A stretch of DNA of 64,000 nt from Eledone cirrhosa (lineage: Eukaryota). The first letter of the stretch is position 1. Each line of letters starts with the position of its first letter. The DNA lies in assembly GCA_964016885.1 (NCBI GenBank), contig OZ024750.1, positions 17,608,001-17,672,000 of the forward strand, read 5' to 3'. Below are positions 17,271 to 45,453 of this stretch, in pieces. A model generated the notes under the pieces. That model made no database searches, was not told where the DNA came from, and worked only from the letters and a program-made list of their open reading frames with translations. The position numbers and the translations under genes were made by a program.

Positions 17271-17820
17271 GGAGGTGAGTTTTATTGTAGCAACAATAAA
17301 GCAATGCAAACATTGAATAAGTAGCACTCCCCAGTTTGTAGGACTGGAGTATAAATAATTGTTTCTACTTTAGGCACAAGGCCAGCAATTACCCAGTGCA
17401 TTACTGGTACTTTATTTTATCGACCCCGTAAGGATGAAAGGCAAAGTCAACCTCGGCGGGATTTGAACTCAGATCGTAAAGGGACGTAACTATGCTGGAA
17501 AGCATGGCGTCCGACCCTTTACCGATACTGCCAATTCACCGACTGGAGTATAAATAATATAAGATCAAAAGATGGTTAAAAAAGTTCCAAGTATTTTATT
17601 ATGCGCATTTCTAAAACAAATATCATCATGGGATGTGAAGTTTTAAATCAACATATATGTTGATTTAAAACTTCACTGCTCACAAGTATTTTTTAAGCTT
17701 CATATAATGTCTCCCTATTTTATCTGATGAGAACGCAGATATCATCCCATGATGATATTTGTTTTTGAAATGCGCATAATAAAATACTTGGAACTCTTTT
17801 AACCATCTTTTGATCTTATA

Positions 17821-17828
<8 letters not shown>
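17271..17828. mobile_element. Penelope-like terminal repeat in inverted (fold-back) arrangement, family 1, in (TA)n, interrupted by SINE-A
   Basis: 17271-17635 is the reverse complement of the 3' part of 45203-45453, and 17656-17828 is a forward copy. A 42-bp perfect palindrome lies at 17635-17676. The SINE at 17360-17540 has an 18-bp TSD (gactggagtataaataat). Confidence 0.7.
17716..17786 (+). ncRNA. Type I hammerhead ribozyme motif
   Basis: Stem I UAUUUUAU/AUAAAAUA; core CUGAUGA; stem II with 15 of 16 pairs; GAAA; palindromic stem III AUGCGCAU. Cleavage triplet AUA, predicted cut after 17778. Confidence 0.75.
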
Positions 17829-17859
<31 letters not shown>

Positions 17860-17886
17860 TATGTGTGTAAATATATATATATATAT

Positions 17887-18017
17887 AAGGACAGACACTG
17901 GTCTGTTGGAGATGCAGGACATGGCGGTGATAATGAGGGACAGAGACCGCTGGAGAGAACTCGTCCATGGATCTCGGGAATTTTACCCGCCTTAGATAGA
18001 TAGATAGATAGATAGAT
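17887..18017 (+). mobile_element. RTE-type LINE 3' end with (TAGA)n tail
   Basis: RTDTGLLEMQDMAVIMRDRDRWRELVHGSREFYPP*; a longer copy lies at 20889-21068. Confidence 0.8.
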
Positions 18018-18254
18018 ATGTGTGTGTGTGCATATATATGTATATATATATATTTATATGTGCATACAGGCACATGTGTGTGTCCCTGACTCCAACATAC
18101 TCTGCCACACCTATGTGTGTGTGTGTGTGTCTGTGAACTCCAGCATACACTGCCACACCTACATTCCATGTTTACCTAAAATGGCAGTTTTTCAGATATT
18201 TAAACTATTAAATAAATAAATCTCCTGTAATATGATCTTATGCTAAATATATGT

Positions 18255-18355
18255 ATGTGTGGTATATCTATTTGTGTGTGTGTGTGTGTGTGTGTGTGGT
18301 ATATTCATTTGTGTGTATGCAGTATATCTATCTGTATGCGTGTGTGGTATATCTA

Positions 18356-18394
<39 letters not shown>

Positions 18395-18535
18395 TATATT
18401 CATTTGTGTGTATGCAGTATATCTATCTGTATGCGTGTGTGGTATATCTATTTGTGTGTGTGTGTGTGTGTGTGTGTGGTATATTCATTTGTGTGTATGC
18501 AGTATATCTATCTGTATGCGTGTGTGGTATATCTA

Positions 18536-18574
<39 letters not shown>

Positions 18575-18715
18575 TATATTCATTTGTGTGTATGCAGTAT
18601 ATCTATCTGTATGCGTGTGTGGTATATCTATTTGTGTGTGTGTGTGTGTGTGTGTGTGGTATATTCATTTGTGTGTATGCAGTATATCTATCTGTATGCG
18701 TGTGTGGTATATCTA

Positions 18716-18754
<39 letters not shown>

Positions 18755-18895
18755 TATATTCATTTGTGTGTATGCAGTATATCTATCTGTATGCGTGTGT
18801 GGTATATCTATTTGTGTGTGTGTGTGTGTGTGTGTGTGGTATATTCATTTGTGTGTATGCAGTATATCTATCTGTATGTGTGTGTGGTATATCTA

Positions 18896-18930
<35 letters not shown>

Positions 18931-19720
18931 TATATTCATTTGTGTGTGTGCAGTATATCTATCTGTATGCGTGTGTGGTATATCTATTTGTGTGTGTGTG
19001 TGTGTGTGTGTGTGGTATATTCATTTGTGTGTGTGCAGTATATCTATCTGTATGCGTGTGTGGTATATCTATTTGTATGTGTAAAGGGAAGGGGTGTATG
19101 GAGTAGCAATATGTGGGTGTGTGAGAGGGGTTGGGTGGTGCAGCAATCCGTGTAATATAAATGGATATGGAATAGCAGTGTGTGTGTGTGTGTGTTTGTA
19201 TGTGTCAGTGTGTGTTTGTTTGTCAGTGTGTGTTTGTATGTGTCTGTGTGTATGTATCAGTATGTGTTTGTGTTTTTCAGTGTTTGTATGTCTGTGTGTG
19301 TGTGTTTGTGTTTTTCAGTGTTTGTATGTCAGTGTGTGTGTGTGTTTGTGTTTGTCAGTGTGTTTGTCTGTGTGTGTGTGTGTGTTTGTATGTGTGTTAG
19401 TGTTTGTCAGTGTGTGTTTGTATGTGTCTGTGTGTGTGTTTGTGTTTATCAGTGTGTTTGTATGTGTCTGTGTGTGTGTATGTCTGTGTGTGTGTGCTTG
19501 TGTTTGTCAGTGTGTGTTTGTATGTGTCTGTGTGTGTGTATGTGTCTGTGTGTGTGTGCTTGTTTGTCAGTGTGTGTTTGTATGTGTCTGTGTGTGTTTG
19601 TGTTTGTCAGTGTGTTTGTATGTGTCTGTGTGTGTGTATGTCTGTGTGTGTGTGCTTGTGTTTGTCAGTGTGTGTTTGTATGTGTCTGTGTGTGTGTATG
19701 TGTCTGTGTGTGTGTGGTAC
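18255..19720. repeat. (GT)n-containing minisatellite with 180-bp higher-order period, followed by a degenerate GT repeat
   Basis: Lines 18301, 18481 and 18661 are identical. Confidence 0.95.
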
Positions 19721-20170
19721 AGTAATCTTACATATATTACTATCTTTCTAACATATAGATATTATGTTTGGAATTGCTGAATTGCTGTATGTGAGGTGGT
19801 GTGAATGTTTTTATGTCTGTCTGTATATTTATGTGGTTTAGTAATCTTACATATATCACTATCTTTATAACATGTAGATATTATGCTGGATATGGGTATG
19901 ACTGTGTGTGTGTGTGTGTCTCTCTGTGTGTGTCTGTCTCTGTGTGTCTGTGCGTGTGTTCGTGTCTGTTTGTGCATATTTGCATGGTTGTTTATTTTAT
20001 CATAATAATTATAATAATAAAATTATTGTGTACAGTGTTCAGGTGCACTACAACTCATCAAAGGTGCATGTATAGTACATAGAATAATGTACAAATGTCT
20101 GGAAAATGAACAGGGTATGAGTCATGATCTACAGAAGAAACAATTTCTTTGAACCAAAATACAAATGTGT

Positions 20171-20217
<47 letters not shown>

Positions 20218-20616
20218 TATTATCACCACCGTTTAATGTCCATTTTTCATGATTGCAGGGGTTAGATGGATTGTCCACGTCATGAGACAAGTCTGGTCAG
20301 TTGGCCGAACAATGCCTTGCTCATAGTGAGCCCTGGGCGAAGCCATTAAGAGGAGGATCTGGCCAGTTGGCCTTACCATAATCCCATCCACATCAGAACC
20401 ATATTTTGGGAGCTGGGTGATCCCAATATAAGGGACGTTGAGCCAGTTGGCCGTGCCAACCTTTATTCATAAAGGAACCATGTTACTGGGTGGTCCTGCC
20501 ATCAACCACGTTTACAGTGTGGAACTGGGTGGCACCATTATGAGCAGGATATATGGGGTTGAGTTGTTGGCATAGGTGTTTTGTCATACGTTGAAACGGC
20601 AGAGGTCTTGGCATTA

Positions 20617-20679
<63 letters not shown>

Positions 20680-20888
20680 TTTTTAAAATCCAATGTCAAT
20701 AAATACATCAGGATTTTTTCATTCTGATGACTGAAAGCAAATTTTGTTTGCTTTCAAGAAACCACTGGTAAATGAAATAATTATCTTTTGTTTATTACAT
20801 AACTATATATATATAGAGAGAGAGAGAGAATAAAAGAAAAAACACAGGTAAGCATTAAAAAAGGATTTTATCCAGGTATTTACGACCG

Positions 20889-21068
20889 TTATGGGAGCCC
20901 CTACATGGACACACTAGAAGAGGAAGACCAAGGTTAACGTATGTTGATGCCCTAAGGACAGACACTGGTCTGTTGGAGACGCAGGACATGGCAGCGATAA
21001 TGAGGGACAGAGACCGCTGGAGAGAACTCGTCCATGGATCTCAGGAATTTTACCCGCCTTAGATAGAT
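20889..21068 (+). mobile_element. RTE-type LINE 3' fragment
   Basis: LWEPLHGHTRRGRPRLTYVDALRTDTG...RDRWRELV, followed by a (TAGA)n tail. Confidence 0.82.
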
Positions 21069-21069
21069 A

Positions 21070-21357
21070 TATTTCTTTATTAGCCACAGGGGCACAAAAG
21101 AAGGGGACAAATACAAAGGGGGAAGTTTACATACAATAAAAACGTGTAAAATGTTATCACAGATGGAATTTAAAAGTTAGTCGATTTTCCCCAATAGAGG
21201 GAGACAGTTTATTTCCTCAACCTACAGGCTGATATAGAGAGAAGGCCCATTCACTCGGGCCATTCTCGCCACTTTCACCCACCTTTCATAAAACTTGCTG
21301 GGGTACAGCACCTCTCTCTCCATCCTGATTCTTCTTCCAAAGTGGTATTTGAAAAAG
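21070..21357 (-). mobile_element. L1/Tx1-clade LINE 3' fragment nested in the RTE (TAGA)n tail
   Basis: The minus strand reads FFKYHFGRRIRMEREVLYPSKFYERWVKVARMARV, then a 3' UTR ending aataaagaaa. gata repeats lie on both sides. Confidence 0.6.
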
Positions 21358-21805
21358 ATAGATAGATAGATATATATATATATCTAGGGAGTGTAACTTG
21401 GAGTTACTGCAGGTTCACCCGGGTGAGCACTCGATGTTTAGGTTCACTTCTGTGTTGAGGTGTAGAGCTATACAGAGTGTGATATATTCCTCCACATACA
21501 CTACAGGCCAATACATCCCTATGATCTTTTCCACCAATCAAAACAACTCATATTGTACAACTTATGAACTTCTGACTTTATCACATAGCATGTATTCATT
21601 TTCTTATACCATTTTAAAGGGTCCGTCGAGCTGCCGATTATTGAGTCGGGTACGATCGATACAGATCGAACCTTGAGCTGATCAGTGGTGAAACATGTGT
21701 CACCTACCAATAAATGTAATGAAGGAATAACCAATCGACCTTGTTATCCTTTCAATATATATATACATATATAAATATATATATTCGTTCATATATGCAT
21801 ATATA

Positions 21806-21883
21806 CAAGGTGTCCCCCAAAAATACATACACACTCCAAAAGCAGATAACTCAAATGTGTATAACTTTTTTGGTACACTCTGT
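21806..21883. mobile_element. About 80-bp Tc1/mariner MITE; second copy at about 60341-60418
   Basis: TA-flanked imperfect TIR ca(a/g)g(g/a)tgtccccaaaaa ... ttttgg...ctg/ttg. Confidence 0.6.
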
Positions 21884-22682
21884 ATATCATTTGTCAATAT
21901 ATTTTTACTGTCTGAAGAGTCAGACATGACAACCAAAAGCATTTACAGTCTATCATATTAAACTGTGTGTGTACATAATAGAGTTATATATATATATATA
22001 TACACGCATGTATATTTATGCACACACACACATATATATGTGTATATACACATACATATACACACACATATATATATATGCGCACACATATATATATTCA
22101 CACACACATATATATATACATACTCATACACACACATATATATATATATATGCACACACACATATATACACATACACACACATATATATATTCACACACA
22201 CATATATACACATACTCACACCCACACATATATATATATATATGCACACACACATATATATACATACACACACATATATATTCACACACACACATATATA
22301 CACATACTCACACCCACACATATATATATATATATGCACACACACATATATACACATACACATACATACATACATACATATATAAATAAAACACCAACAG
22401 TATCATATCATTCAACACAAATGTGTCAATCTGTTTCAAATTTAAATTTTTCTGTTTCCTTTTACATTTTATAATTATTTCAAAAAGTATAATATCGTTT
22501 CTATATTTTTGTTCTGCAAGATTCTTGATGTGAAGTCCAGTATTGGAACAGATATTCTTGTACTTCAGGATGGTTGAACTGTCAATCAAAATAATTTTCT
22601 ATTTTTTATTTTTCAAACTTATTTCCAATTATTTATTGTGTGTCTGTATCAAGATTTTTCTCTTGTTTTATGTATATTACAG

Positions 22683-22764
22683 GATTGCTAAGGAGAAGAA
22701 GAAGATCGATAAAATGATATGTGATAGTCAAGAAAGAGCCTTCTGGCGTGTCCATAAACCTGCA
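22683..22764 (+). CDS. R7 RGS exon (DHEX end): IAKEKKKIDKMICDSQERAFWRVHKPA
   Basis: ttacag acceptor and gtaagt donor; 82 nt, phase 2 to 0. Contains the diagnostic DSQERAFWxVH(R/K)P motif. Confidence 0.95.
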
Positions 22765-23481: not shown

Positions 23482-23580
23482 CCAGGACAAATAAAATCCT
23501 TTGAAGAACGAACAAAGAGAAACTTCTCACCTTCACAGATTGCTGCTAAAAAGGAAAGCAAGGAATATTTACGTAATAAG
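23482..23580 (+). CDS. R7 RGS exon (DHEX-GGL linker): PGQIKSFEERTKRNFSPSQIAAKKESKEYLRNK
   Basis: ttctcttcag acceptor and AAG|gtaatt donor; 99 nt, phase 0 to 0. Continues the conserved P-x-PG motif. Confidence 0.9.
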
Positions 23581-23617
23581 GTAATTATATTTATTTTAAC
23601 GTGTTTATGGTGTTTAA

Positions 23618-24704: not shown

Positions 24705-24741
<37 letters not shown>

Positions 24742-24946
24742 ACACACACTCACACGATCACACACACGCTACATGCACGCTCATACGCACGCTCACACAC
24801 ACATTTGATGAATAAACCACAAGAGACAAATCCTAAACTGCCAGTCAATGTATAATAAATTTGACTTTACTTGTCCTTTCATCAGGAAATGTTTGAAGTT
24901 ATTTATAATTTTGTATTTTAACATTAACATTAATCCACAAATGTAG

Positions 24947-25004
<58 letters not shown>

Positions 25005-25072
25005 ACATACACACACATACACACATACACACACATACATACACACATACATACACACACACATACATACAC

Positions 25073-25103
<31 letters not shown>

Positions 25104-25120
25104 TACATACATACATACAT

Positions 25121-25482
25121 GGTGGCTGCCAACTCGTTTTCGAGTACGGCCACTACTTCATATCCATGTAGGAGAACCCCTACCGATGCGCTGAACGAGT
25201 GTGACTTTTTAGTCCAGCCAGCGACTTGAAAACTCTAGTACAAACACTACACTTGTGACAATTATTGACACATAGTGCTGGGCCCATGGTACCATGTGAT
25301 GGCAGGTGCAGAGAGATATCCAGATATAAAGCAATGCCTGTGCCGTGAAGCTTTTATAGTGAGCAAAGGCACTGCACAAAGCCAGTCCCACTCTCTTAAC
25401 CAAGATGATATTTACCAAAAAGAAGAACAAGTCAACATCATTGGATACCATCAGGGTTGCAGGTGTTATATCAGAGTTTTCC
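25121..25482 (-). mobile_element. Non-autonomous retroposon (RTE-like head, (ATGT)n tail); copies at 34213-34770 and 63451-64000
   Basis: Three highly similar copies share one boundary, two of them next to (ATAC)n. The minus strand has ctaggagaaggaaaactctga and actggcaacccc, recalled as RTE 5' UTR motifs. Confidence 0.65.
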
Positions 25483-26124: not shown

Positions 26125-26158
<34 letters not shown>

Positions 26159-27698: not shown

Positions 27699-28961
27699 TT
27701 AAGAAACCTGAGAACAATGGATATCAAACATGAAATCTTTTATGAGATAATGTAAAATATTAATTAGTTTCACTGCTTTTGTTTCAAATTGAGATAATTT
27801 CTTTAGTTGTATCTGTTCTTGATCAGACCTGTACATCTTAGACAGAAATAGGGAAGACAACAGACATTGTAAAAAGAATGAACTACAAATGTTCACAATT
27901 ATAGTTTTCTGGTTTATATAGTATGACCAAATAGTTTATAAGCACGATTTGCAATTCTAAAGTCCAGATTTGATCCTATTGGCTGGCAACTTTAGCAAGT
28001 GTCTTTACCATGGCCTCAGGTTAACCCAAAAATTGTGAGTGAAATTGGGTAGACAGAAAGTGTATGCAAGCCTATCAGATGGATTGAATCAGTATTTCAA
28101 AGGGCCAGTGTTTATATGTTCTATTTTAGGGGACAGACATCATATTGTGACTCTGTTCTACAATATTTTAGGGGGCGAACAACATGCAATGTCTCGGTGT
28201 TGTTCAATATTTTAGCGGGTAGATAACATATAATGACTATGTTCCATAATATTTTAGGGGAAAGATAACATACAGTCTCTCTATGTTGTTTAACCCCTAA
28301 TATTTTATGGGTATGATAATGCTGCTGATTTGCTCTAGATATTCACAAGACTATGAAACCTCCAAGGAGTAATACTATGAGATCCCCTTCCCTGTAGATT
28401 TCACTGCAGACATCATATGATACATAATGACAAACAACAAAATATTGTGTTTAAACTCAGAAATACATTATATCTGTTCCTGGCCTGACATTTATGTCAA
28501 CACCACACATCGCCACCACCAACACTACCACACATGTCACCACCAACACCACATGTCACCACCGACACTACATCCTCTATAAAAAAATATATTAACACCA
28601 CCAACAACATATTTACTGGTTTTAATATAAAGGTCACCTCCATATAAAGAACTTCCAAAACTTTTAGACAATGAAGATATCATTATTCCAGTTCTTCCAA
28701 TATCTTTATTGTTGTTGTTGTTCCTAGGAATTCCACACCAAACATGGAGCTATATTGCTGTCATCTTCATTAAATCCCTCCCACTTGTCTTACAGAATGT
28801 CAAATGATTCTATCATCATCATCATCATCATCATCGTTTAACGGCTATCTTCCATGCTAGCATGGGTTAGATGGGTTTGTCCCACTTGAGGCAAGTTTGG
28901 TGAATATGACAACCTGTTTAACACATGCAAGCAAGGTAAATAAATATAAAATGATAATGAT

Positions 28962-29003
<42 letters not shown>

Positions 29004-29731: not shown

Positions 29732-29959
29732 GTAATTTACTTATAATATCTACCTTTGTTGTTGCTTAACACACACACCCACACACAAAAGGAAGAGTAT
29801 CCAGCTGTAGAAATGAAGCCAGCCCCACCTTCCCTCTGCAGAACCTTTGTAAGCAATAATTACCCCTAGGCATGAAGTCCCTGGCTCTCAACTGGTATAG
29901 TAATAATAACTGGTATAGTAATCATAATAATAATAACAATAGTAATAATAGTAATAATA

Positions 29960-30530
29960 ATTGTTTCTACTATAGGCACAAGGCCAGCAATTTGGGGGCC
30001 AAGGGAAATTCGATTAAATCAACACCAGTGCATTACTGGTACTTTATGTTATCAACCTCGTAAGGATGAAAGGCAAATGATAATAATAATAATAATGTTT
30101 CTACTTTTGGCACAAGGCCGGCAATTACTCCAGTGCATTACTGGTACTTTATTTTATCGACCCCGTAAGGATGAAAGGCAAAGTTAACCTTGGCGGGATT
30201 TGAACTCAGAATGGCAAGGGCCGTAACTCTATGCGTCAAAGCATGTCGTCCGACCCTCTACCGATATTGCCAATCCACTAATAATGATAATAATGATTTC
30301 TACTTTAGGCACAAGGCCAGCAATTACCCAGTGCATTACTGGTATTTTATTTTATCGACCCCGTAAGGATGAAAGGCAAAGTCAACCTCGGCGGGATTTG
30401 AACTCAGATCGTAAAGGGACATAACTATGCTGGAAAGCATGGCGTCCGACCCTCTACCGACACTGCCAATCCACCGCCCTGATAATCCACCAATAATGAT
30501 AATAATAATGTTGATTTCTACTTTAGGCAC
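29960..30530 (-). mobile_element. Stack of SINE-A copies separated by (AAT)n
   Basis: Two full copies plus fragments. Confidence 0.88.
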
Positions 30531-31119
30531 AAGACCTTGTTTGGCTCACACAGAATTGATTTTGGCTTAGTTTCTATGGCTGGATGCTCTTCCTAACACC
30601 AACCACTTTACAGTGTGGACTGGGTGCTTTTTGTCGTGTGTGTTTTGTGTGCTTATATATATGTTAGAGAGAGAGATGGTCTTTCGGTTTACTTCTGTTA
30701 CTCTGAAACAAAATAAAAACCAGTCGTAAACAAATCGAAATTCTTTTGTTTGAGTCTTGGCAGGTCTTGGCATTTGTCTTCATGTCAGTGTATGGTGTAC
30801 CTGTATTTACCTGTGTTTACATGTGTGGGTGTACCTGTGTTTACATGTGTAGGTGTACCTGTGTTTAGATGTGTGGGTGTGCATCTGCGTTGTGTGTATA
30901 TGGTGTGCATGTGTGTTGTGTGTGTGTGTATATGTGTAGGATTACGTGTGGCTTTACATCTGTGTGAGTGTGTGCAAGTGTATATGAAGTGTGTGTGTGT
31001 ACATGTGTGTCCATGTGTTTGTTTATTTCTAAGTGAGTACAATTAATTAGTGAGTACATTAATTAGACATATAACAAGGGACATAACAATTACAAATCTT
31101 TAAAAACTAAATATATTGA

Positions 31120-31930
31120 AATCATCATCATCATCGTCATCATCATTTCCATCACCACCATCACTACCATCATTATCATCATCCTCATCATCACTACCAC
31201 CACCACCACCACTGCCATCATCATTACCACCACCACCACTACCACCACCACCCTCACCATCACTGCCACCACCACCCTCACCATCACTGCCATCATCATT
31301 ACCACCACCCTCACCACCACCACCACCACCACCCTCACCACCATTACCACCACCACCACCACCACCACCAACACCACCCTCACCACCATCACTGCCACCC
31401 CCATTACCACCACCCAAACCACCACCTTCATCACCACCACCGACACCACCCTCACCACCATCACTGCCACCACATTACCACCACCAAAACCACCACCCTC
31501 ACTACCATCACCACCAACACCACCCTCACCACCATCACCAACCTCACCACCACCACCACCACCAACCTCACCACCACCACCACCACCAACCTCACCACCA
31601 CCACCACCAACCTCACCACCACCACCACCACCACCCTCACCACCACCAACACCACCCTCGCCACCATCACTGCCACCACCATTACCACCACCAAAAACCA
31701 CCACCATCACCACCATCACCACCAACACCACCCTCGCCACCACCACCACCAACCTCACCACCACCAACGCCACCCTCACCACCACCACTACCACCACCAC
31801 CCTCGCCACCATCACCACCAACCTCACCACCAACACCATCATCACCACCACCACCATGACTACCACACACCATCTCACCACCATTTACTGCTAGCAACTC
31901 ATTATCTCTCCTTCATTAAGGCCAACCTCT

Positions 31931-31980
<50 letters not shown>

Positions 31981-32115
31981 ATTCATTTTAAAAATCATTC
32001 ATTAATCACTGCTGTATTGTCAGTTTTGTCAATGACCACTTGTAGAAATTAAACATCTCGTTAAGTAGATTCCACAAATTAAAAATACAGGAAATAGACT
32101 TTCAAAGGGCAAATC

Positions 32116-32147
<32 letters not shown>

Positions 32148-32474
32148 CATCATCATTAACATCATCATCATTAACATCATCATCAACATTATTATCATAA
32201 TCATTATAACACCATCATCATCATCATCAAGATCGACATTATAAGCATCATTATCTACATGATGATGATGATCATGATCATCATCATCATCATCATCATA
32301 ATCGACACCATAAATAAACATCGTAAACATAATAATCATAAACTACATTATCACTACTACCACAGCTACTACTACTACTACTACTACTACTACTGCTGTT
32401 GCTACTACTACTATTACTACTACTACTATTACCACCACCACTACTACTAGTACTACTACAAATACCAATACTAT

Positions 32475-32509
<35 letters not shown>

Positions 32510-32684
32510 TTACTACTACTACTACTATTACCACCACCACTACTACTAGTACTACTACAAATACCAATACTATTACTATTACTACTACTACTACTACTAC
32601 TACTGCTGTTGCTACTACTACTATTACTACTACTACTATTACCACCACCACTACTACTAGTACTACTACAAATACCAATACTAT

Positions 32685-32715
<31 letters not shown>

Positions 32716-32795
32716 GCTGTTGCTATTACTACTATTACTACTACTACTATTACCACCACCACTACTACTAGTACTACTACAAATACCAATACTAT

Positions 32796-32826
<31 letters not shown>

Positions 32827-32900
32827 GCTGTTGCTACTACTACTATTACTACTACTACTATTACCACCACCACTACTACTAGTACTACTACAAATACCAA

Positions 32901-32946
<46 letters not shown>

Positions 32947-33170
32947 GCTGTTGCTACTACTACTATTACTACTACTATTATTACCACCACCACTACTACT
33001 AGTACTACTACAAATACCAATACTATTACTACTACTACTACTACTACTACTACTGCTGTTGCTACTACTACTATTACTACTACTACTGCTGTTGCTACTA
33101 CTACTATTACTACTACTACTATTACCACCACCACTACTACTAGTACTACTACTACTACTACTACCAATAC
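31120..33170. repeat. Degenerate (ACC)n, (ATC)n and compound (ACT)n arrays
   Basis: Visible directly; the ACT array has a higher-order unit of about 110 bp. Confidence 0.95.
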
Positions 33171-33509
33171 TACAAATAACCCACTTTTTATTTCCTTCTC
33201 ATTGTATCTTATTATTTTCCTGAGTTCAAATCCCGCCGAGGTTGACTTTGCCTTTCATCCTTACGGGGTCGATAAAATAAAGTACCAGTAATGCACTGGA
33301 ATAATTGCTGGCCTTGTGCCAAAAGCAGAAACAATTATTTTCCTTTGATTTTTACCTTTCTATTGTACTCAATATCTTCAGCCCTTGTGGCCAATAAAGA
33401 AAATTATCATTTAATTATGTATATATATATATACATACATACATATACATACATACATACATACATATATATACATACATATACATACATACATACATAT
33501 TCATACATA

Positions 33510-33862
33510 CATCATCATCATCATCATCATCATTTCATTTTACGTCCGCTTTTTCCCTGCTTGCAAGGGTGGGACGGGAACTGATTCTGGCTTGATTTCT
33601 ACAGCTGGATGCCCTTCCTAACACCAACCTCATTTACAGTGAGTGCTGGGTGCTTTTTTGCCGTGGCACCTCCACGACCACTTTACAGTGGATTGATAGG
33701 GACCCCAGTCCCTATCATCTCATTTCTACAGCTGAGTAAACTGGAGCAAAGTGAAATAAAGTGCCTTGCTCAAGGAAACAACACATCACCCGGTCTGAGA
33801 ATTGAACTCACAACCTTTCGATTGCAAGGCCAATGCTCTAACCACTAAGCCATGTGCCTCCA
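33510..33862 (-). mobile_element. SINE-B copy
   Basis: Reverse complement of 62880-63216. Confidence 0.9.
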
Positions 33863-34212
33863 TACATATACATACATATACATACATACATATACAGACA
33901 TACATATACATACATACATATACATACATATACATACATATTCATACATACATATACATACATATACATCATACATATACATACATAGACATACATATAC
34001 ATACATATACATACATATACATACATACATATACATACATACATATTCATACATACATATACATACATACATACATACATATACATACATACATACTTAT
34101 ACATACATATACATACATATACATACATACATGCATACATATACATACATATACATACATACGTATTCATACATACATACATACATACATACTTATACAT
34201 ACATACATACAT

Positions 34213-34770
34213 AGTGGCTGCCAACTCGTTTTCGAGTACGGCCACTACTTTATATCCATATAGGAGAACCCCTACCGATGCACTGAACGAGTGTGACTTT
34301 TTAGTCCAGCCAGCAACTTGAAAGCTCTGGTACAAACACTACACTTGTGACAATTATTGACACATAGTGCTGGGCCCATGGTACCATGTGACGACAAGTG
34401 CAGAGAGATCTCCAGATATAAAGCAATGCCTGTGCTGTGAAGCTTTTATAGTGAGCAAAGGCACTGCACAAAGCCAGTCCCACTCTCTTAACCAAGATGA
34501 TATTTACCAAAAAGAAGAACAAGTCAACATCATTGGATACCATCAGGGTTGCAGGTGTTATATCAGAGTTTTCCTTCTCCTAGAATTCTGCCTTGACAAA
34601 GGCTAAGGGGTCATCTCTCCCGGTGATTTTGGATGGCCATTGACTCTTAAGAGCTCCTTTGCCCTTTGACAGGTTTTGTTTTTAGTCCTGCAGGATGTCC
34701 AAAGTCACCCTCCTCACCAAGAAACCTTGGTGGGGTTGCCAGTTTAGTCACCAACGACCCGACCATGAGA
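34213..34770 (-). mobile_element. Non-autonomous RTE-headed retroposon copy
   Basis: Near-identical to 63451-64000. Confidence 0.7.
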
Positions 34771-34827
34771 CATATATATATACATACACATACATATACA
34801 TACATAAATATATATACATATATATGA

Positions 34828-35170
34828 AGGCACATGGCTTAGTGGTTAGAGCATTGTCCTTGCAATCGAAAGGTTGTGAGTTCAATTCTCAGACCGGGTG
34901 ATATGTTGTTTCCTTGAGCAAGACACTTTATTTCACATTACTCCAGTTTACTCAGCTGTAGAAATGAGATGATAGGGACTGGGGTCCATATCATTCCACT
35001 GCAAAGTGGTCGTGGAGGTGCCACGGCAAAAAAGCACCCCAAAAAGCACTCACTGTAAATGAGGTTGGTGTTAGGAAGGGCATCCAGCTGTAGAAATCAA
35101 GCCAGAATCAGTTCCCGTCCCACCCTTGCAAGCAGGGAAAAAGCGGACATAAAAATGAAATGATGAAATG
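34828..35170 (+). mobile_element. SINE-B copy
   Basis: tRNA-like head tggcttagtgg / gagttcaatt and (ATG)-rich tail. Confidence 0.9.
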
Positions 35171-35221
35171 ATATATACACACACATATCATCATCATCAC
35201 CGTTTTACGTCCGTTCTTCCA

Positions 35222-35398
35222 CAGTAGAAGGAAACCACAGTAGAGAAAGACTAAGGAAGACTTGGGCAGAGTTGATGATGAGGGCTGATCTTAAATCACT
35301 GAAGCTCACACAGGAGATGATGAAGGAATGCAACGCAAGACCTGTCCAACATATGCAAGCATGGAAAAGCGGATGTGAAATGATAATGATGATGATGG
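35222..35398 (+). mobile_element. RTE LINE 3' end sharing the SINE-B tail
   Basis: VEGNHSRERLRKTWAELMMRADLKSLKLTQEM followed by gcaagcatggaaaagcggatgtgaaatgataatgatgatg. Confidence 0.7.
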
Positions 35399-36059
35399 AA
35401 GATATTTACTGTTATGCTATCACATTTAATGTGTATCTGTTGTCAATGGTGTTATTAACTGGTAGGATGTCGAAATGTTACTTAAGTACTTCTTCTGAAT
35501 TAACTAGAGTAGCATGGTCATTAAAACATCACAATAGTAGAAGTAGTAGTAGTAGTAGTGGTGGTGGTGGTAGTGGTAGTGGTAGTGGTAGTAGTAGTGG
35601 TAGTAGTATTAATAGTAGTAGTGGTAGTGGTAGTAGTAGTAGTAAAGATATATTCTGGATAATGAAATTCAACAAGAGGCAGAAGGAAGAAAAGGAATTC
35701 AGTTGAGTTTTTTCTGTATTTTGTGGCATTTTTATATATATTGTAGTAAACCCCAACTCCTTTCTTAAACAGTTAGATATATACATATATATATATATAT
35801 GTACATATATATATATATATATATACAAACAAACATTGATACATATAAACATACTTACATACAAACATATATACGTGTGTACATACTTGTGTATACGTGT
35901 GTGTATATATACATGCATACATTCATACATACATACATGCACATAGTTATATTGAAAACAAACTAATATATAAAGAGCTGAATTTCATTTTCAAATGGAG
36001 GATACATCTTCAGACATAGAAAGGTATGGATAATACTGCCTCAGTGTGTGTGTGTTTTA

Positions 36060-37720
36060 TGTTTTAACTTGTGTTTTTCTGTCTTTTCGTGTCTTAACTA
36101 TATCTTAACTCTCTGTGTGTCTTAACTTTGTTGTATTAACTGTGTCGTAACTTTTCTGTGTGTCTTAACTTTGGTACCTTAACTATGTTTTAACTTCTCT
36201 GTGTGTCTTAACTATGTATTGTCTGTGTCTTAACTTTGGTACCTTAACTATGTTTTAACTTCTCTGTGTGTCTTAACTATGTATTGTCTGTGTCTTAACT
36301 TTGGTACCTTAACTATGTTTTAACTTCTCTGTGTCTTAACTATGTATTGTCTGTGTCTTAACTTTGGTACCTTAACTATGTTTTAACTTCTCTGTGTGTC
36401 TTAACTATGTATTGTCTGTGTCTTAACTTTGGTACCTTAACTATGTTTTAACTTCTCTGTGTGTCTTAACTATGTATTGTCTGTGTCTTAACTTTGGTAT
36501 CTTAACTATGTTTTAACTTCTCTGTGTGTCTTAACTATGTATTGTCTGTGTCTTAATTTTGGTACCTTAACTATGTTTTAACTTCTCTGTGTGTCTTAAC
36601 TATGTATTGTCTGTGTCTTAACTTTGGTACCTTAACTATGTTTTAACTTCTCTGTGTCTTAACTAGGTATTGTCTGTGTCTTAACTTTGGTACCTTAACT
36701 ATGTTTTAACTTCTCTGTGTGTCTTAACTATGTATTGTCTGTGTCTTAACTTTGGTACCTTAACTATGTTTTAACTTCTCTGTGTGTCTTAACTATGTAT
36801 TGTCTGTGTCTTAACTTTGGTACCTTAACTATGTTTTAACTTCTCTGTGTGTCTTAACTATGTATTGTCTGTGTCTTAACTTTGGTACCTTAACTATGTT
36901 TTAACTTCTCTGTGTGTCTTAACTATGTATTGTCTGTGTCTTAACTTTGGTATCTTAACTATGTTTTAACTTCTCTGTGTGTCTTAACTATGTATTGTCT
37001 GTGTCTTAACTTTGGTACCTTAACTATGTTTTAACTTCTCTGTGTGTCTTAACTATGTATTGTCTGTGTCTTAACTTTGGTACCTTAACTATGTTTTAAC
37101 TTCTCTGTGTGTCTTAACTATGTATTGTCTGTGTCTTAACTTTGGTACCTTAACTATGTTTTAACTTCTCTGTGTGTCTTAACTATGTATTGTCTGTGTC
37201 TTAACTTTGGTACCTTAACTATGTTTTAACTTCTCTGTGTGTCTTAACTATGTATTGTCTGTGTCTTAACTTTGGTACCTTAACTATGTTTTAACTTCTC
37301 TGTGTGTCTTAACTATGTATTGTCTGTGTCTTAACTTTGGTACCTTAACTATGTTTAACTTCTCTGTGTGTCTTAACTATGTATTGTCTGTGTCTTAACT
37401 TTGGTATCTTAACTATGTTTTAACTTCTCTGTGTGTCTTAACTATGTATTGTCTGTGTCTTAACTTTGGTACCTTAACTATGTTTAACTTCTCTGTGTGT
37501 CTTAACTATGTATTGTCTGTGTCTTAACTTTGGTATCTTAACTATGTTTTAACTTCTCTGTGTGTCTTAACTATGTATTGCTTGTGACTTAACTATGTAT
37601 TTCTTGTGTCTTAACTATGTATTGCTTATGTCTTAACTTTGGTATCTTAACTATGTTTTAACTTCTCTGTGTGTCCTAACTTTGTGTCTTCACTATATTT
37701 TAAGTATGTCTTAACTTTGG
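36060..37720. repeat. 65-bp minisatellite built from TTAAC-initiated subunits
   Basis: Unit actttggtaccttaactatgttttaacttctctgtgtgtcttaactatgtattgtctgtgtctta. Confidence 0.97.
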
Positions 37721-38287
37721 TCTTTCAAATGTAAAAACCAATGTTAGGTGTTTGGTGATAGGAAGGACATCAGACTGCAGAAACTGTGCCAAAATGAAAT
37801 ATATGTAACTGAGAAATGGTCCCCTGCCCTGTCTACGAGGACAGGGGCTCTGCTAAAGTATTGACTTGGTCAGTAATGACCAGTCCAACCCATGCCAGAA
37901 TGGAACACCATGTAAAATGATGACGAGGATATATATATACATTTTTACTAAAAGTGTTTCACCTTTGATCTTCAAAGGTATAGGAAGCAAAATATCTAAA
38001 ATTTAGTTTGAAATAGTAATTATATATGTGTTTGTGTGTGTGTATACACCTCCACTATGTATTCCACACACATACACTCACACATATGCCCGAATATGTG
38101 TGTGTGAGTATGTATTCGTGTATATATTTACACACCTGTGTTGGTATATGAAGTTAGTTGTAGATAAACTGCTACATTACCTAAACACACAAAACATGCA
38201 TACAAACAATTATGTACACATACACATCATCCATCATCCATATACATATACACATATATACATCACTCATATACATACATATAACAC

Positions 38288-39452
38288 TAGTGTGTTTCAT
38301 ATTTATAGGGAAATTTTTCTTTAGTTGAAATCACCTCATGCCGATTGCGCTCTGGATCCATTTTACATAAAAACCACATAGACAAAAATACAAGATTCTT
38401 ATATTACTCGAATATAAGAACTCAAAATAAAATTGATTGATTGATTTTGCTTTACATCTTTCACAGTGAATAAGAAAATTGAAACCAGAAAGCCCATTTG
38501 GCTGCTTGAGAAAAAGCTCGATGAGGAGTTACCTCAAACTTAACTCCCTTCCAAACAACAAATGCTCCTGTGTTTTCTCTACCATCATGTCGAACTCAGG
38601 GAGACAATTTCAGTTGCCAGAAAATATACTAGCCAGGGAGTGTGGGGGAAAGCAAATATACCTGCCAGAATGGAAAAAAAACATCCACACTTCAATTGAG
38701 AAATTGATTAAGAACTGACAAAGCAATTGCAAAGGGTGAAATTTGGGGAAAGATGATCGCGAGGAAATTTTTGACATTGCAAGCCAGAACGTTCTCAAAT
38801 GAAAGGATGTTACATCTGAAGACAAAACTTTCCTTGAGACACAGCGAAAAGATCGGATGTCTTCATTCCTGGCTGGTGTTGGTGCAGAAAATGTGAAAGA
38901 GCCATTCAGAAGAAGGACAAAAATATTCAAGATATGAAAATAAGAAAAAGAAAGCAAACAGGATGAAGTCAAAATGTCCAAGAAAGTAGCTCTCAAAAGT
39001 TTATCATCCAGCTCAGCTATTAGTGATGATGATGATGATGAAATCTTCAGGTCATCACCATCCCGGAAGTCATTACAAATGAAGCTGACTCTCGATGTCA
39101 CTCTTGTTGCCAGGTGGAAACAGGAGAAACTATTGGTATAACAAGCAAGTACTTCTTACATCCCAATTGTGGAGAGTCTTAGTCATGATGTGTCTGAACG
39201 TTTGATTTCTCCCTCAACTGTTTATCGAACAAGATGATGACTCAGGGAATCGAGTTATCTGCTTTCCCACCCTAAAACTGATCCCGGCTAGTCATCCCCT
39301 AGGATGGAGAATCATTACTATCGGATTCCCGATCCAGCACACTCGAAGATCAGATTGCAGTTTTAGTTACAGGAAAAGGAAAGGTGGAGCCCTTATGTGT
39401 TCCTATTGCAAGAGATGGGACAGGACAAGTTGCTGAAGCGTATATAATTGAG
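38288..39452 (+). mobile_element. Decayed hAT-type (hATm-like) DNA transposon, 3'-truncated
   Basis: Broken frames LPSKQQMLLCFLYHH, VWGKANIP, EEIFDIA, EDKTFLETQRKDR and DG...DQIAVLVTG...VP...GTG match the recalled pattern LPSxxQVL..FWxKAxIP..LFDIAH..EDKxFLxxQR..HWDGK..DRxxVxV..GTG. Possible left end tagtgtg. Subgroup assignment is tentative. Confidence 0.6.
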
Positions 39453-39923
39453 TACATAATTGTCTGTATTCATGTTTTGTGTGTTGAGATAATGTAGCAA
39501 TTTATCTACAACTGACTTCATATACCAACATATGTGTGTTAATATATACACACTCACACACACACACACACATTCAAGCATACTGTAAAGTGGTCATGTA
39601 GGTGACATGACAAAAAAGTGCCCAGCCCACACTGTTATATGTTCCTGGTCGTGTCATGACAAATAGCATCCAGCCCACACTGTAAAGTAGTTGTGTAGGT
39701 GTCACTATAAAAAGCACCCTGTAAATGTGGTTAGTGTTAGGAAGGGCATCCAGCTATAGAAACCGAGCCAAAATTAGTTCTGTATGAGCAAGACATGGTC
39801 ACCTAACCTGGCCTATCTCACAACAGGACAACTCATCTAACCCATGCTAGCATGATAAAATGGATATTAAACGGTGTTGGGGATGATATATATATATATA
39901 TATTTATATATAAATATATATAT

Positions 39924-40039
39924 ATAGGAACAAGTAAGACCCCGGGGTCTTACTTGTTCCTATTACCCACTCTACTACCCTAAGTATTGAGTACTTTGGT
40001 GCGTTATGGTCCACCTGGTTCCTTACCACATTTCCTTCG

Positions 40040-40040
<1 letters not shown>
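39924..40040 (+). mobile_element. Penelope-like family 2 fragment starting with a perfect 40-bp palindrome
   Basis: ataggaacaagtaagacccc|ggggtcttacttgttcctat; (TA)n on both sides. Confidence 0.65.
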
Positions 40041-40074
<34 letters not shown>

Positions 40075-40201
40075 CAAATGAAGTAACAGAGTAAAGGACT
40101 CGTGTTGTTCCCTGTAATACATTGAGCTCAAGGAAAATTTTTCCGGCTCTTCAAAATATATAGGAGAGAATACATGAAAAGAACATGGTTTTTCATTACA
40201 G

Positions 40202-40243
<42 letters not shown>

Positions 40244-41455
40244 CACACGCACACACACACATACATGCACACACACATATACAGCACCCACACAAACATA
40301 TATCACCATCATTTTACATGTTTTCCCATGCTTGCATGTATACATACACATAGCTCTCAACATTGATGACAACATTGTATGTCGTCCATATGTTAATTGT
40401 TGAAAGAGGAAACATCTGTCTTAATTAAGTTGACTTAAATTTGTCCTGAGTAGTGGACATAAATGTTACTGTGCACTTAGCTTGACTTAAACGTTATATC
40501 CTAAATGGGTGGAGAAAATATATTTCTCTCTAGTGAAAGACACTGCCTGTGATTTTGAAATAAATTTAAAAACAATCAAGAATTTTGGGTGATTTTGTAA
40601 AATTATTAAGCTCGTGTTTGGAGCATAACTTAAAAGATCTGTACATAGAATTATGGTGAAAAGTCTTTAAATAAATATAAGTACTTTAAAAAAAAAGAGT
40701 TTTATATTGCAGAACTAAGGATGTTTTCTTGCAGTTTAGTATTAAAGTGCTTAAAACTCTAGTGAAATGGCAAGTGAAGTGCCAGACTATGTAGATTCTC
40801 GGCAGTATTAAATTTGGCACTACAGGTAAAATTCCATTATAACGAATTTTTGAAATTTGACCTGAGGTAAATATAGAAAATGATATGAGTCAACAAGGGA
40901 GTTTATACATGGATACTGAACCTGCTAGATATAGAAGCCAATTTTCTCCTAAAATCAATCTTGAATGAAGGGCCTGCATTCATATTTGGAAAATGTCATC
41001 TAATTCTATACAAACATATACATATATTTGTGTAAACACACACATATACACATACGTGGTGAAGACATAGAGCCTGGTGGTTAGGTTATGTAGTCAATTC
41101 CAGAACAGGACAGAAGATGGTGTTCTTGAGCAAGATGCTTCATTTCACATTTTTTCATGATAAGACTGGAGCACCTATCTTTAAAACACATGAGAAACCT
41201 CTGATGAAATGCAACTTCATGGGAGGTCAACTAAACCTACGTAGGTGTGAGCTGTAACAACAACATGATAGGACTGGGGCCCCTATCACTAAAACACCTG
41301 AAAAACCTCCTATGAGATCAAACCTCATCGGAGACCCGAAAAACCTCCTCACCAAGAAACCTTGGTGAGGTTGCCAGTTTAGTCGCCAACGACCCGACCA
41401 TGAGACAGGTTGTACTGGGATACATGTTACCAGTAGCACCAACTGGTGACCTGAC

Positions 41456-41488
<33 letters not shown>

Positions 41489-41675
41489 TACATATATAAA
41501 GAGTGAGAAAGAAATGTGCATGAGCGTGTATATAAATATATATACACATAGATATATGTTTACGTATGTATGTATAGGTGTATATATTCATACACACACA
41601 TATACATATATGTATATATATATATATATACTCTTTATATATATATATTAAATATTTATACTCTGCTATGTATTG

Positions 41676-42004
41676 TTTCATTTTACGTCCGCTTTTTTCC
41701 TGCTTGCAAGGGTGGAACGGGAACTGATTCTGGCTTGATTTCTACAGCAGGATGCCCTTCCTAATGCCAACCTCATTTACAGTGAGGGCTGGGTGCTTTT
41801 TTGCCGTGGCACCTCCACGACCACTTTACAGTGGAATGATAGGGACCCCAGTCCCTATCATCTCATTTCTACAGCTGAGTAAACTGGAGCAATGTGAAAT
41901 AAAGTGTCTTGCTCAAGGAAACAACACATCTCCCGATCCGAGAATTGAACTCACAACCTTTCGATTGCAAGGCCAATGCTCTAACCACTAAGCCATGTGC
42001 CTCC
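41676..42004 (-). mobile_element. SINE-B copy
   Basis: Reverse complement of 62880-63216. Confidence 0.9.
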
Positions 42005-42258
42005 ATTAATATATACATGCAGACACATAAAGCTTCTTCTCTCATGTCTAATATAATGGCCTGATATATCAATTATATAGTTAGGCACACTTTAGAACGG
42101 CACCACTCTTGAAAAGAAGTGGAGGAGAGGTGTACACACGTACACATATATACACGCACACATGCACACATGCACCCACTCACATACACACACACACACG
42201 GACATACACACAGACACGCACACACATACACAGACGTTCATTCATATTACCTCAGACT

Positions 42259-42289
<31 letters not shown>

Positions 42290-42739
42290 GTGTGAACAAA
42301 CAGATACATAACATATATATACTTTTATTTTATCACACACATACACACATACGCACATACACACACACATACATACACACACACATACATACATACACAC
42401 ACACATACATACATACACACAAACACACTCACTGTGTGAAAGAGAGAGGCAAGAGAAAACATGGGGAAAGACCTGTGAGGTGAGGGGCATGGTTGGAGTG
42501 GGGGTATTGTCAAGGGGAGGGGGAGGGTGTTGCCAAGGTGTAGGTGTATGGGGTGGAGGGGAATGTTGGCAAGGGGGTGAGGGTTAGTTACATCAGTTAA
42601 CAATTTCAAATCTTTCCACTTTATCAAGAAAGTCTGTAGGAATCTGATGGAGGAGGGAGGGGGGCTTCTTGAGTGTCAGTAGTAGTGGGGGGGGGTTAAT
42701 TGTGGTGGTGATCGGTGTGTGGGGGGGTATCAGTGGCAG

Positions 42740-44880
42740 TAGTGATGATGGTTGGTGGTGGTGGTGGTGGTGGTGATTGGTGGTGATGGTGATTGTTGGT
42801 GATGGTGATTGTTGGTGGTGGTGGTGATGGTGATTGTTGGTGGTGGTGGTGGTGGTGGTGATTGTTGGTGATGGTGATTGTTGGTGATGGTGATTGTTGG
42901 TGGTGGTGGTGATGGTGATTGTTGGTGGTGGTGGTGGTGGTGGTGGTGATTGTTGGTGATGGTGATTGTTGGTGATGGTGATTGTTGGTGGTGGTGGTGA
43001 TGGTGATTGTTGGTGGTGGTGGTGGTGGTGGTGGTGATTGTTGGTGATGGTGATTGTTGGTGATGGTGATTGTTGGTGGTGGTGGTGGTGGTGGTGGTGA
43101 TTGTTGGTGATGGTGATTGTTGGTGATGGTGATTGTTGGTGGTGGTGGTGATGGTGATTGTTGGTGGTGGTGGTGGTGGTGGTGGTGATTGTTGGTGATG
43201 GTGATTGTTGGTGATGGTGATTGTTGGTGGTGGTGGTGATGGTGATTGTTGGTGGTGGTGGTGGTGGTGGTGGTGATTGTTGGTGATGGTGATTGTTGGT
43301 GATGGTGATTGTTGGTGGTGGTGGTGGTGGTGGTGGTGATTGTTGGTGATGGTGATTGTTGGTGATGGTGATTGTTGGTGGTGGTGGTGATGGTGATTGT
43401 TGGTGGTGGTGGTGGTGGTGGTGGTGGTGATTGTTGGTGATGGTGATTGTTGGTGATGGTGATTGTTGGTGGTGGTGGTGATGGTGATTGTTGGTGGTGG
43501 TGGTGGTGGTGGTGGTGATTGTTGGTGATGGTGATTGTTGGTGATGGTGATTGTTGGTGGTGGTGGTGATGGTGATTGTTGGTGGTGGTGGTGGTGGTGG
43601 TGGTGATTGTTGGTGATGGTGATTGTTGGTGATGGTGATTGTTGGTGGTGGTGGTGGTGGTGGTGGTGATTGTTGGTGATGGTGATTGTTGGTGATGGTG
43701 ATTGTTGGTGGTGGTGGTGATGGTGATTGTTGGTGGTGGTGGTGGTGGTGGTGGTGATTGTTGGTGATGGTGATTGTTGGTGATGGTGATTGTTGGTGGT
43801 GGTGGTGATGGTGATTGTTGGTGGTGGTGGTGGTGGTGGTGGTGATTGTTGGTGATGGTGATTGTTGGTGATGGTGATTGTTGGTGGTGGTGGTGGTGGT
43901 GGTGGTGATTGTTGGTGATGGTGATTGTTGGTGATGGTGATTGTTGGTGGTGGTGGTGATGGTGATTGTTGGTGGTGGTGGTGGTGGTGGTGGTGGTGAT
44001 TGGTGGTGATGGTGATTGTTGGTGATGGTGATTGTTGGTGGTGGTGGTGATGGTGATTGTTGGTGGTGGTGGTGGTGGTGGTGATTGTTGGTGATGGTGA
44101 TTGTTGGTGATGGTGATTGTTGGTGGTGGTGGTGATGGTGATTGTTGGTGGTGGTGGTGGTGGTGGTGGTGATTGTTGGTGATGGTGATTGTTGGTGATG
44201 GTGATTGTTGGTGGTGGTGGTGATGGTGATTGTTGGTGGTGGTGGTGGTGGTGGTGGTGATTGTTGGTGATGGTGATTGTTGGTGATGGTGATTGTTGGT
44301 GGTGGTGGTGGTGGTGGTGGTGATTGTTGGTGATGGTGATTGTTGGTGATGGTGATTGTTGGTGGTGGTGGTGATGGTGATTGTTGGTGGTGGTGGTGGT
44401 GGTGGTGGTGATTGTTGGTGATGGTGATTGTTGGTGATGGTGATTGTTGGTGGTGGTGGTGATGGTGATTGTTGGTGGTGGTGGTGGTGGTGGTGGTGAT
44501 TGTTGGTGATGGTGATTGTTGGTGATGGTGATTGTTGGTGGTGGTGGTGGTGGTGGTGGTGATTGTTGGTGATGGTGATTGTTGGTGATGGTGATTGTTG
44601 GTGGTGGTGGTGATGGTGATTGTTGGTGGTGGTGGTGGTGGTGGTGGTGGTGATTGTTGGTGATGGTGATTGTTGGTGATGGTGATTGTTGGTGGTGGTG
44701 GTGATGGTGATTGTTGGTGGTGGTGGTGGTGGTGGTGATTGTTGGTGATGGTGATTGTTGGTGATGGTGATTGTTGGTGGTGGTGGTGATGGTGATTGTT
44801 GGTGGTGGTGGTGGTGGTGGTGATTGTTGGTGATGGTGATTGTTGGTGGTGGTGGTGGTGACGTGAGTGGTGGTGGTGGT
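42740..44880. repeat. Compound (GGT/GAT/TGT) trinucleotide satellite
   Basis: Visible directly; explains the spurious 741-aa ORF. Confidence 0.97.
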
Positions 44881-45202
44881 GACGTGTATGGTGGTGGCTG
44901 TGGGGGAGGTGATGGAGGCTTCTGTTTCTCTCATTGTTCTCAAGTGTGTCAACATGGAATAAACATTAGTGTGAGTGTATGTGTGGCCGTCTGTGTGTTT
45001 TTTGTGGTTGCTTCTTTGTGTGTGTGTGTGTAAAAATATAGAAATATGTTTATATTTTTTTATGTTGGTATGGGTTGTATTTGACCTTTTGAGGCAATTC
45101 TTTTATATCTGAATGCCCTTCCTTACACCAATCCTTTGCAAGGATATAGTATACCTATTCTGACCATATGTATTTATATATCATCATCATCATCGTTTAA
45201 CG

Positions 45203-45453
45203 GTTGATTTAAAACTGCACTATTCACAAGTGTTTTTTAACCTTCATATCATGTCTCCCTATTTTATCTGACGAAAACGCAAATGTCATCGCATGATGAT
45301 ATTTTTTTTTGAAATGCGCATAATAAAATACATGGAACTCTTTTAACCATCTTTTGATCTTATATATTATTTATACTCCAGTCCTACAAACTGTAGAGTG
45401 CTACTTATCCAATATCTGCATTGCTTTATTGTACTACAATAAAACTCACCTCC
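45203..45453 (+). mobile_element. Penelope-like terminal repeat, family 1, ending in (TA)n
   Basis: Homologous to both arms at 17271-17828; contains a hammerhead motif. Confidence 0.7.
45260..45330 (+). ncRNA. Type I hammerhead ribozyme motif, copy 2
   Basis: UAUUUUAU-CUGACGA-stem II-GAAA-UGCGCAUA|AUAAAAUA; predicted cut after 45322. Confidence 0.72.

Follow-up and report, generated by a model that had tools for sequence, protein, structure and literature searches.

Two intact-looking type I hammerhead ribozymes in a 64,000-nt stretch of the octopus Eledone cirrhosa (assembly GCA_964016885.1, contig OZ024750.1, positions 17,608,001 to 17,672,000 of the forward strand; this whole stretch is called the window, and positions are given within it) are carried by two dispersed copies of an octopus repeat with a high copy number, each in an intron of the gene RGS7. 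We consider it quite probable that this repeat is the pseudo-long terminal repeat (pLTR) of a Penelope-like retrotransposon (Penelope-like element, PLE), that its two copies sit passively in (TA)n tracts of the RGS7 introns, and that their ribozymes would cleave rarely or never. Most likely both copies are passive and one of them is locked by its own inverted twin; no host function is shown by the present evidence. The host gene was recognized as RGS7 from its RGS-domain exon, which is 97% identical to the protein named Octopus sinensis RGS7 (P0002), and mapping of this protein onto the window placed the RGS7 exons on the + strand from about 1.3 kb to 50.6 kb. Both hammerheads fall into introns with GT and AG ends (Table 1), which bears out the statement of the initial annotation, made from the letters of the DNA only, that they are intronic and sense to an RGS pre-mRNA. 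The predicted cut of the 45-kb copy lies about 2.9 kb upstream of the intron acceptor; this distance and the length of the intron are approximate because of a 200-N scaffold gap at 47723-47922 within it.

Each motif is 71 nt long and consists, according to its pair table, of an 8-bp stem I made up of A-U pairs throughout, a stem II of 16 positions closed by a 4-nt loop, and a core which reads CUGAUGA or CUGACGA, followed by GAAA, the helix III strand AUGCGCAU and UA at the cleavage site. The invariant core (CUGANGA, GAAA, and UH) is present in both copies around a three-way junction with an open stem I; this topology confirms both as type I hammerhead motifs, with a predicted cut after H17. 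A type I descriptor run over both strands of the window matched only copy 1 and copy 2, and in 100 block-wise dinucleotide shuffles there were 0 strict matches (stem I of at least 8 bp, helix III strand of at most 6 nt) and 0.14 loose matches per shuffle. The two complete motifs proposed by the initial annotation were in this way recovered with the same coordinates, stems, and core. Its further statement, that the copies differ at stem II and N7 with the catalytic positions intact, also held: six of the 71 positions differ, none of them in the invariant core. Three are A-U/G-U wobble swaps, and the others are N7, a loop base, and a break of stem II at 45305. Copy 1 and copy 2 are copies of one repeat and not independent events. 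Stem II is not closed by G10.1-C11.1 in either copy (Table 1) and has a C-U mismatch at its fourth position; a C at 11.1 is found in repeat copies elsewhere, at about 0.7% of the depth of sequencing run X1 and in 9-13% of restriction-site-associated DNA (RAD) reads. The search with Rfam hammerhead models that had been suggested as a check gave no hammerhead match at either site in focused scans at E ≤ 10, nor among the best 150 of 172 whole-window matches, which is likely a limit of the models with respect to a long stem II combined with a short helix III.

Table 1. Coordinates in the window of the hammerhead motifs, of the repeat copies which carry them, and of the surrounding RGS7 features.
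Feature	Position	Strand	Remarks
Type I hammerhead motif, copy 1	17716..17786	+	Predicted cut after 17778 (H17); stem II base G-U
Type I hammerhead motif, copy 2	45260..45330	+	Predicted cut after 45322 (H17); stem II base A-U; private C-U mismatch 45280/45305
Repeat unit (pLTR-like body), copy 2	45203..45375	+	Sharp 5' end common to many genomic copies; loose ends 45203, 45355, 45367, 45375
Tail, 80 bp, then (TA)n(GA)n	45376..45455	+	Self-comparison
Sense unit (pLTR-like body), no tail, continuing into (TA)n	17659..17829	+	91% identical to 45203-45375
Inverted unit copy (antisense arm)	17549..17652	-	Unit positions 1-18 joined to 85-173; lacks 5' half of hammerhead
Perfect 42-nt palindrome, head-to-head junction of two copies around ATATAT	17635..17676	.	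Self-comparison
Tail of inverted copy, ending in (TA)n	17269..17349	-	74/80 identical to 45376-45455
Later insertion in inverted copy, like a short interspersed nuclear element (SINE)	17360..17540	.	Between 18-bp duplications 17342-17359 and 17541-17558
RGS7 intron around 17-kb locus	15843..22682	+	GT..AG ends; exons on either side correspond to aa 150-175 and 176-202 of P0002
RGS7 intron around 45-kb copy	29732..48193	+	GT..AG ends
RGS-domain exons of host gene	49356..50649	+	Pfam PF00615

Self-comparison of the window showed that the repeat is composed of a 173-bp unit, followed at some copies by an 80-bp tail, and that it ends in (TA)n. The 17-kb locus reads, in order, (TA)n, inverted tail, SINE-like insertion, inverted truncated copy, ATATAT, sense unit without tail, and (TA)n; the inverted copy also bears an 18-nt repeat of the unit start, and the SINE-like repeat inserted in it has more than 15 relatives in the window, the best of which is 97.8% identical. 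The initial annotation had placed an antisense arm at 17591-17635 upstream of the hammerhead; such an arm is present, but it is longer, extending over 17549-17635, where 85 of 87 positions are complementary to the copy 1 region. The possibility that the palindrome at the junction is an assembly artefact was considered and is unlikely: the arms are not identical (2 of 87 positions are different), a deletion and a SINE are found in one of them, and raw reads of other loci contain inverted joints. This locus has two further features. A direct repeat, CATATGTGTGTAAA(TA)n, flanks the insertion at 17226-17255 and 17859-17887 and is possibly a target duplication of about 28 bp, or else a chance occurrence in microsatellite DNA; and 17549-17829 would give about 105 bp of near-perfect double-stranded RNA within the RGS7 intron, a possible substrate of ADAR or Dicer. 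Cephalopods are known for heavy A-to-I editing. At the other locus, the 23 nt just before the unit (45180-45202) occur unchanged at 28821-28843, where another repeat family begins; that family recurs at 45513, and the match is possibly the product of a nested insertion or of a template switch.

Among the features described for PLE insertions are a neighbouring inverted copy truncated at its 5' end, a tail that is often one-sided, and (TA)n as target (Craig 2021, PMC8557442). An inverted truncated copy adjoins the 5' end at 17269-17652, and reads from other loci show opposite-strand joints at 45203. The bias for (TA)n is seen directly at all three 3' ends of unit copies in the window and at several loose ends in the reads, and the hammerhead lies within the terminal repeat and has a palindromic helix III. 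Because no match to a reverse transcriptase (RT) or to a GIY-YIG domain was found in the window, membership among the PLEs is inferred from this anatomy; a lone PLE terminus is not expected to carry an open reading frame (ORF) for either. The view of the initial annotation that the hammerheads are Penelope-like termini has thus gained the backing of the (TA)n flanks, the inverted 5' copy, the one-sided tail, the copy number, and the palindromic helix III, which fall short of proof. In the supplement of a study on Octopus vulgaris, PLEs are given as 6.83% of the genome (PMC13282606).

Abundance and variation of the repeat were addressed by read mapping, in which four of 14 runs were placed on 45190-45440, a stretch which excludes the last 15 nt of the tail. 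From X1, 4,087 contigs fit this stretch, as did 5,045 reads of the 12.5 million of RAD run X12 and 5,740 reads of a second RAD run; read depth is not copy number and RAD sampling is biased, and with these limits the repeat is probably a high-copy family with thousands of copies. Loose ends concentrate at the four positions listed in Table 1, two of which (45367 and 45375) run into (TA)n. Among the five joints listed, three are opposite-strand, two are skips, and none is head-to-tail; the opposite-strand joints 45203/45363 and 45203/45323 show that an inverted truncated copy adjoins the 5' end at other loci as well. Many copies extend upstream of 45203 into one common sequence (25 of 30 letters agree by eye between the X1 and X12 consensus), which was not found in the window and points to a longer parent. 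This sequence is likely where the parent element continues, and it offers the best way to trace the autonomous copy.

These data bear on two other origins of the repeat. In the first, the unit would be the monomer of a non-LTR retrozyme, a class of non-coding elements of 170-250 nt in which head-to-tail arrays act as masters and give rise to circular RNAs; the window copies would then be dispersed monomers. The size of the unit, its low GC content, and its type I hammerhead with a palindromic helix III fit the retrozymes as described (PMC7229834), and all three window copies begin at the same base. We nevertheless regard this origin as unlikely, as the window copies are not tandem, none of the five listed joints is head-to-tail (in a stretch that stops 15 nt short of the tail end, and with the proviso that (TA)n spacers could hide arrays in short contigs), and the common sequence upstream of 45203 points to a longer parent. 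Known retrozyme families are reported to include dispersed monomers and to derive from pLTRs (bioRxiv 10.64898/2026.07.22.740005), so that a retrozyme and a PLE origin overlap. In the second, the repeat would not be a PLE but, for instance, a SINE-like element which carries the hammerhead along as a passenger and is mobilized by long interspersed nuclear elements (LINEs), as in Schistosoma Sm-alpha-type elements. The fixed 5' end and short length would suit such a passenger, as would the 23 nt that the 45-kb copy has in front of it in common with another octopus repeat, and SINEs and LINEs are reported to be abundant in octopus (PMC13282606); against this, the head-to-head inversion and the one-sided tail are PLE traits, the focused Rfam scans gave no tRNA-like match at either site, and there is no poly(A) end, and we can give this origin hardly any credence.

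Variants among the copies were taken from the best 40 of 82 variant rows, to which the following counts refer. They fall on 34 positions within the unit, and all 12 invariant core positions are spared (P about 0.07 across the unit and 0.04 within the motif). A pair is kept by nine of the ten stem variants; leaving aside the private one, by eight of nine (binomial P 0.035 under a transitions-only null and 9e-6 when all changes are allowed). The private variant is the stem II break of window copy 2 at 45305, where nearly all other copies have G. A helix III variant, 45316 G>U, was rejected as a RAD artefact: it goes along with 1,141-1,539 molecules that pile up with their ends at 45313, and in X1 it has 10.9 of 1.5 million depth. 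The variant pattern as a whole suggests constraint on the source elements, short of proving covariation. Of core conservation and stem covariation across genomic copies, on which the initial annotation had staked its interpretation, the former is seen in the untouched core, and the latter has in its favor the pairing kept by eight of nine stem variants, although no two-sided change appears.

Whether the ribozymes would act in RGS7 RNA was approached by predicted folding. The monomer hammerhead fold of copy 1 is predicted to cost 6.6 kcal/mol alone, 10.9 kcal/mol in the unit, and 55 kcal/mol with the antisense arm, and 46 kcal/mol when the nascent chain has grown only just beyond stem I; the 17-kb hairpin is predicted at -151.8 kcal/mol (z -25). 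The model thereby supports the proposal that the antisense arm silences the 17.7-kb copy. For copy 2 the predicted cost is 8.4-8.7 kcal/mol as a monomer and 5.5-5.8 kcal/mol in a dimer-ready state. The self-duplex of AUGCGCAU, which would form helix III, is predicted at -10.5 kcal/mol, and a dimer of two hammerheads is plausible on energetic grounds. A dimer in cis of copy 1 and copy 2 was considered and rejected: the 45-kb copy is a lone monomer whose only known partner, the 17-kb copy, is 27.5 kb off in another intron and is predicted to be locked. Among published motifs, a single minimal motif of Schistosoma mansoni did not cleave and dimers showed low cleavage (Cervera and de la Pena 2014, PMC4209133), and of nine Xenopus dimer elements one cleaved and eight did not; in the same report about 43% of retrozyme copies are within introns (bioRxiv 10.64898/2026.07.22.740005). 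Hammerhead cutting of the host RGS7 pre-mRNA, which the initial annotation had raised, is unlikely in this model, with the 17-kb copy locked and the 45-kb copy left as a monomer of high folding cost.

Under a contrary reading the 45-kb copy would be an active intronic ribozyme which cuts RGS7 pre-mRNA co-transcriptionally, alone or in trans with transcripts of other copies, and measurably lowers or times mRNA output in the manner of the Cpeb3 ribozyme. It is on the sense strand with an intact core, at the distance from the acceptor given above, its stem I is predicted to form in context with a P of 0.5-0.85, and Cpeb3 provides a precedent (PMC10919898). Its helix III is predicted to have only 2 bp in the monomer, however, and its basal stem II pairs about 2% occupancy; the stem break at 45305, lacking in nearly all other copies, looks like drift and not selection; the eight of nine Xenopus dimer elements reported without cleavage count against it, and the locus is one among many copies. 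We hold an active role at this locus to be highly improbable. Also very unlikely, if slightly less so, is a broader idea, that the thousands of near-intact copies are conditional ribozymes in octopus pre-mRNAs. Lone sense copies such as 45260-45330 would cleave only on meeting the AUGCGCAU strand of another copy, in cis or in trans, and inverted insertions would be built-in antisense locks giving long double-stranded RNA, a possible substrate of A-to-I editing. If this were true, selection would be visible as a shortage of intronic copies that are sense and unlocked, and the 45-kb copy could fine-tune the output of RGS7.

The preferred reading, that of passive PLE termini, would work as follows. 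By analogy with known PLE hammerheads, two hammerheads on one RNA of the source element would pair their self-complementary AUGCGCAU strands into a joint 8-bp helix III, and the dimer would cut after AUA and so trim the transposition RNA. With an RT and a GIY-YIG endonuclease supplied from elsewhere, short 3' ends would be copied into (TA)n, often together with an inverted truncated copy. At 17 kb transcription would reach the inverted copy before the sense unit, and the long hairpin formed by the two is predicted to hold the ribozyme trapped; at 45 kb there is no partner near copy 2.

Several observations weigh against this account. The tail is one-sided but, at 80 bp, about twice the 30-40 bp of described PLE tails. 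No RT or GIY-YIG Pfam match was obtained among the 216 filtered ORFs of the window (at least 52 aa), in which the only Pfam families were RGS, RGS_DHEX, Mos1 helix-turn-helix (HTH), and C2H2 fingers, and no parent element was found. Five probe motifs of the octopus repeat are absent from the consensus set and supplement of Craig 2021. In the variant data the remaining stem variant, 45310 U>C, keeps its pair only if the same molecule also has G at 45275; the reads are unphased, variants and subfamilies are not independent, and among the best 40 of 82 rows no two-sided compensatory change appears. The nearest-neighbour energies omit tertiary contacts and Mg2+ and so indicate, rather than prove, that the monomer is inactive. 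Single coral and mussel retrozyme motifs are reported to cleave (PMC7229834) and, taken together with the omitted tertiary contacts, this means that copy 2 could cleave slowly. Scans with patterns of the repeat gave 0 loci in metagenomes and 0 in viral contigs; two loci from a 20-mer scan were dismissed as chance because only the 20-mer, and no other sequence of the unit, is in common.

The window contains other repeats besides. The SINE-like family to which the insertion at 17360-17540 belongs is about 180 bp long and very abundant; it occurs for example at 55362-55539 and 30299-30476, with decayed copies at 216-bp spacing in 6242-7256. Weak tRNA-like Rfam matches within repeats at 33795-33852 (-) and 62889-62946 (+), at 28.1 bits and below gathering, are possibly tRNA-derived SINE heads. 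A Mariner transposase fragment with a Mos1-type HTH lies at 60909-61580 (Pfam PF17906, E 2.6e-8). Three repeat copies which are 90-96% identical and carry a C2H2 zinc-finger frame (24948-25482, 34034-34763, and 63434-63999) are likely LINE 3' ends. The frame 15273-15620 (-), which has no Pfam match, we take by eye to resemble a LINE reverse-transcriptase stretch.

Of modest importance, the repeat adds to the octopus hammerheads a family which is missed by Rfam and whose stem II is unusually long and has a pair other than G-C at its base. The 17-kb locus is a clear example of a Penelope-style inverted insertion that is predicted to disable its own ribozyme. The family also permits a genome-wide test of in vivo cutting by metazoan PLE hammerheads, using sense and antisense, locked and unlocked intronic copies. 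Literature searches turned up no paper on the repeat family; they did not extend to papers behind subscription, to Repbase or Dfam, or to the repeat library of O. vulgaris.

With the hepatitis delta virus-like ribozyme of Cpeb3 (PMC10919898) and the amniote intronic hammerheads (PMC6765202) the octopus copies have in common a sense-strand motif of self-cleaving type located in a signalling-gene intron. Those ribozymes are locus-specific, and activity of the Cpeb3 ribozyme is reported, whereas the octopus motif belongs to an abundant repeat with one copy predicted to be locked and one bearing a private stem defect. The non-LTR retrozymes described from coral, mussel, axolotl, and Xenopus (PMC7229834; bioRxiv 10.64898/2026.07.22.740005) are likewise short non-coding AT-rich units with a type I hammerhead and a high copy number, but the octopus copies are not tandem and their joints are inverted, not head-to-tail. 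Closer in host is Hydra-1_Obim, a Hydra-clade PLE of Octopus bimaculoides with a canonical hammerhead and an A-U stem II base, given in the supplement of Craig 2021 (PMC8557442). It is similar in its octopus host, its (TA)n target, its sense type I hammerhead near the 3' end, and its non-G-C stem II base, and differs in sequence, in a shorter stem II, and in a 4-bp helix III with a 1-nt loop. Other PLE motifs in that supplement have G-U stem II bases and a loop-less palindromic helix III, and also lack G10.1-C11.1. Compared with the motifs described for the pLTRs of metazoan PLEs (Cervera and de la Pena 2014, PMC4209133), the octopus repeat has no unpaired base between A9 and 10.1, most of its copies are without G10.1-C11.1, its stem II is longer (16 positions, with a C-U mismatch), its stem I consists of eight A-U pairs, and no parent ORF was found. 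The likeness lies in the type I topology, the short palindromic helix III suited to dimers, the long helix II, and the occurrence mostly as single dispersed motifs with some opposite-strand pairs 100-700 bp apart. Hammerheads in PLE termini were thus already established, and the octopus repeat is probably an unnamed family.

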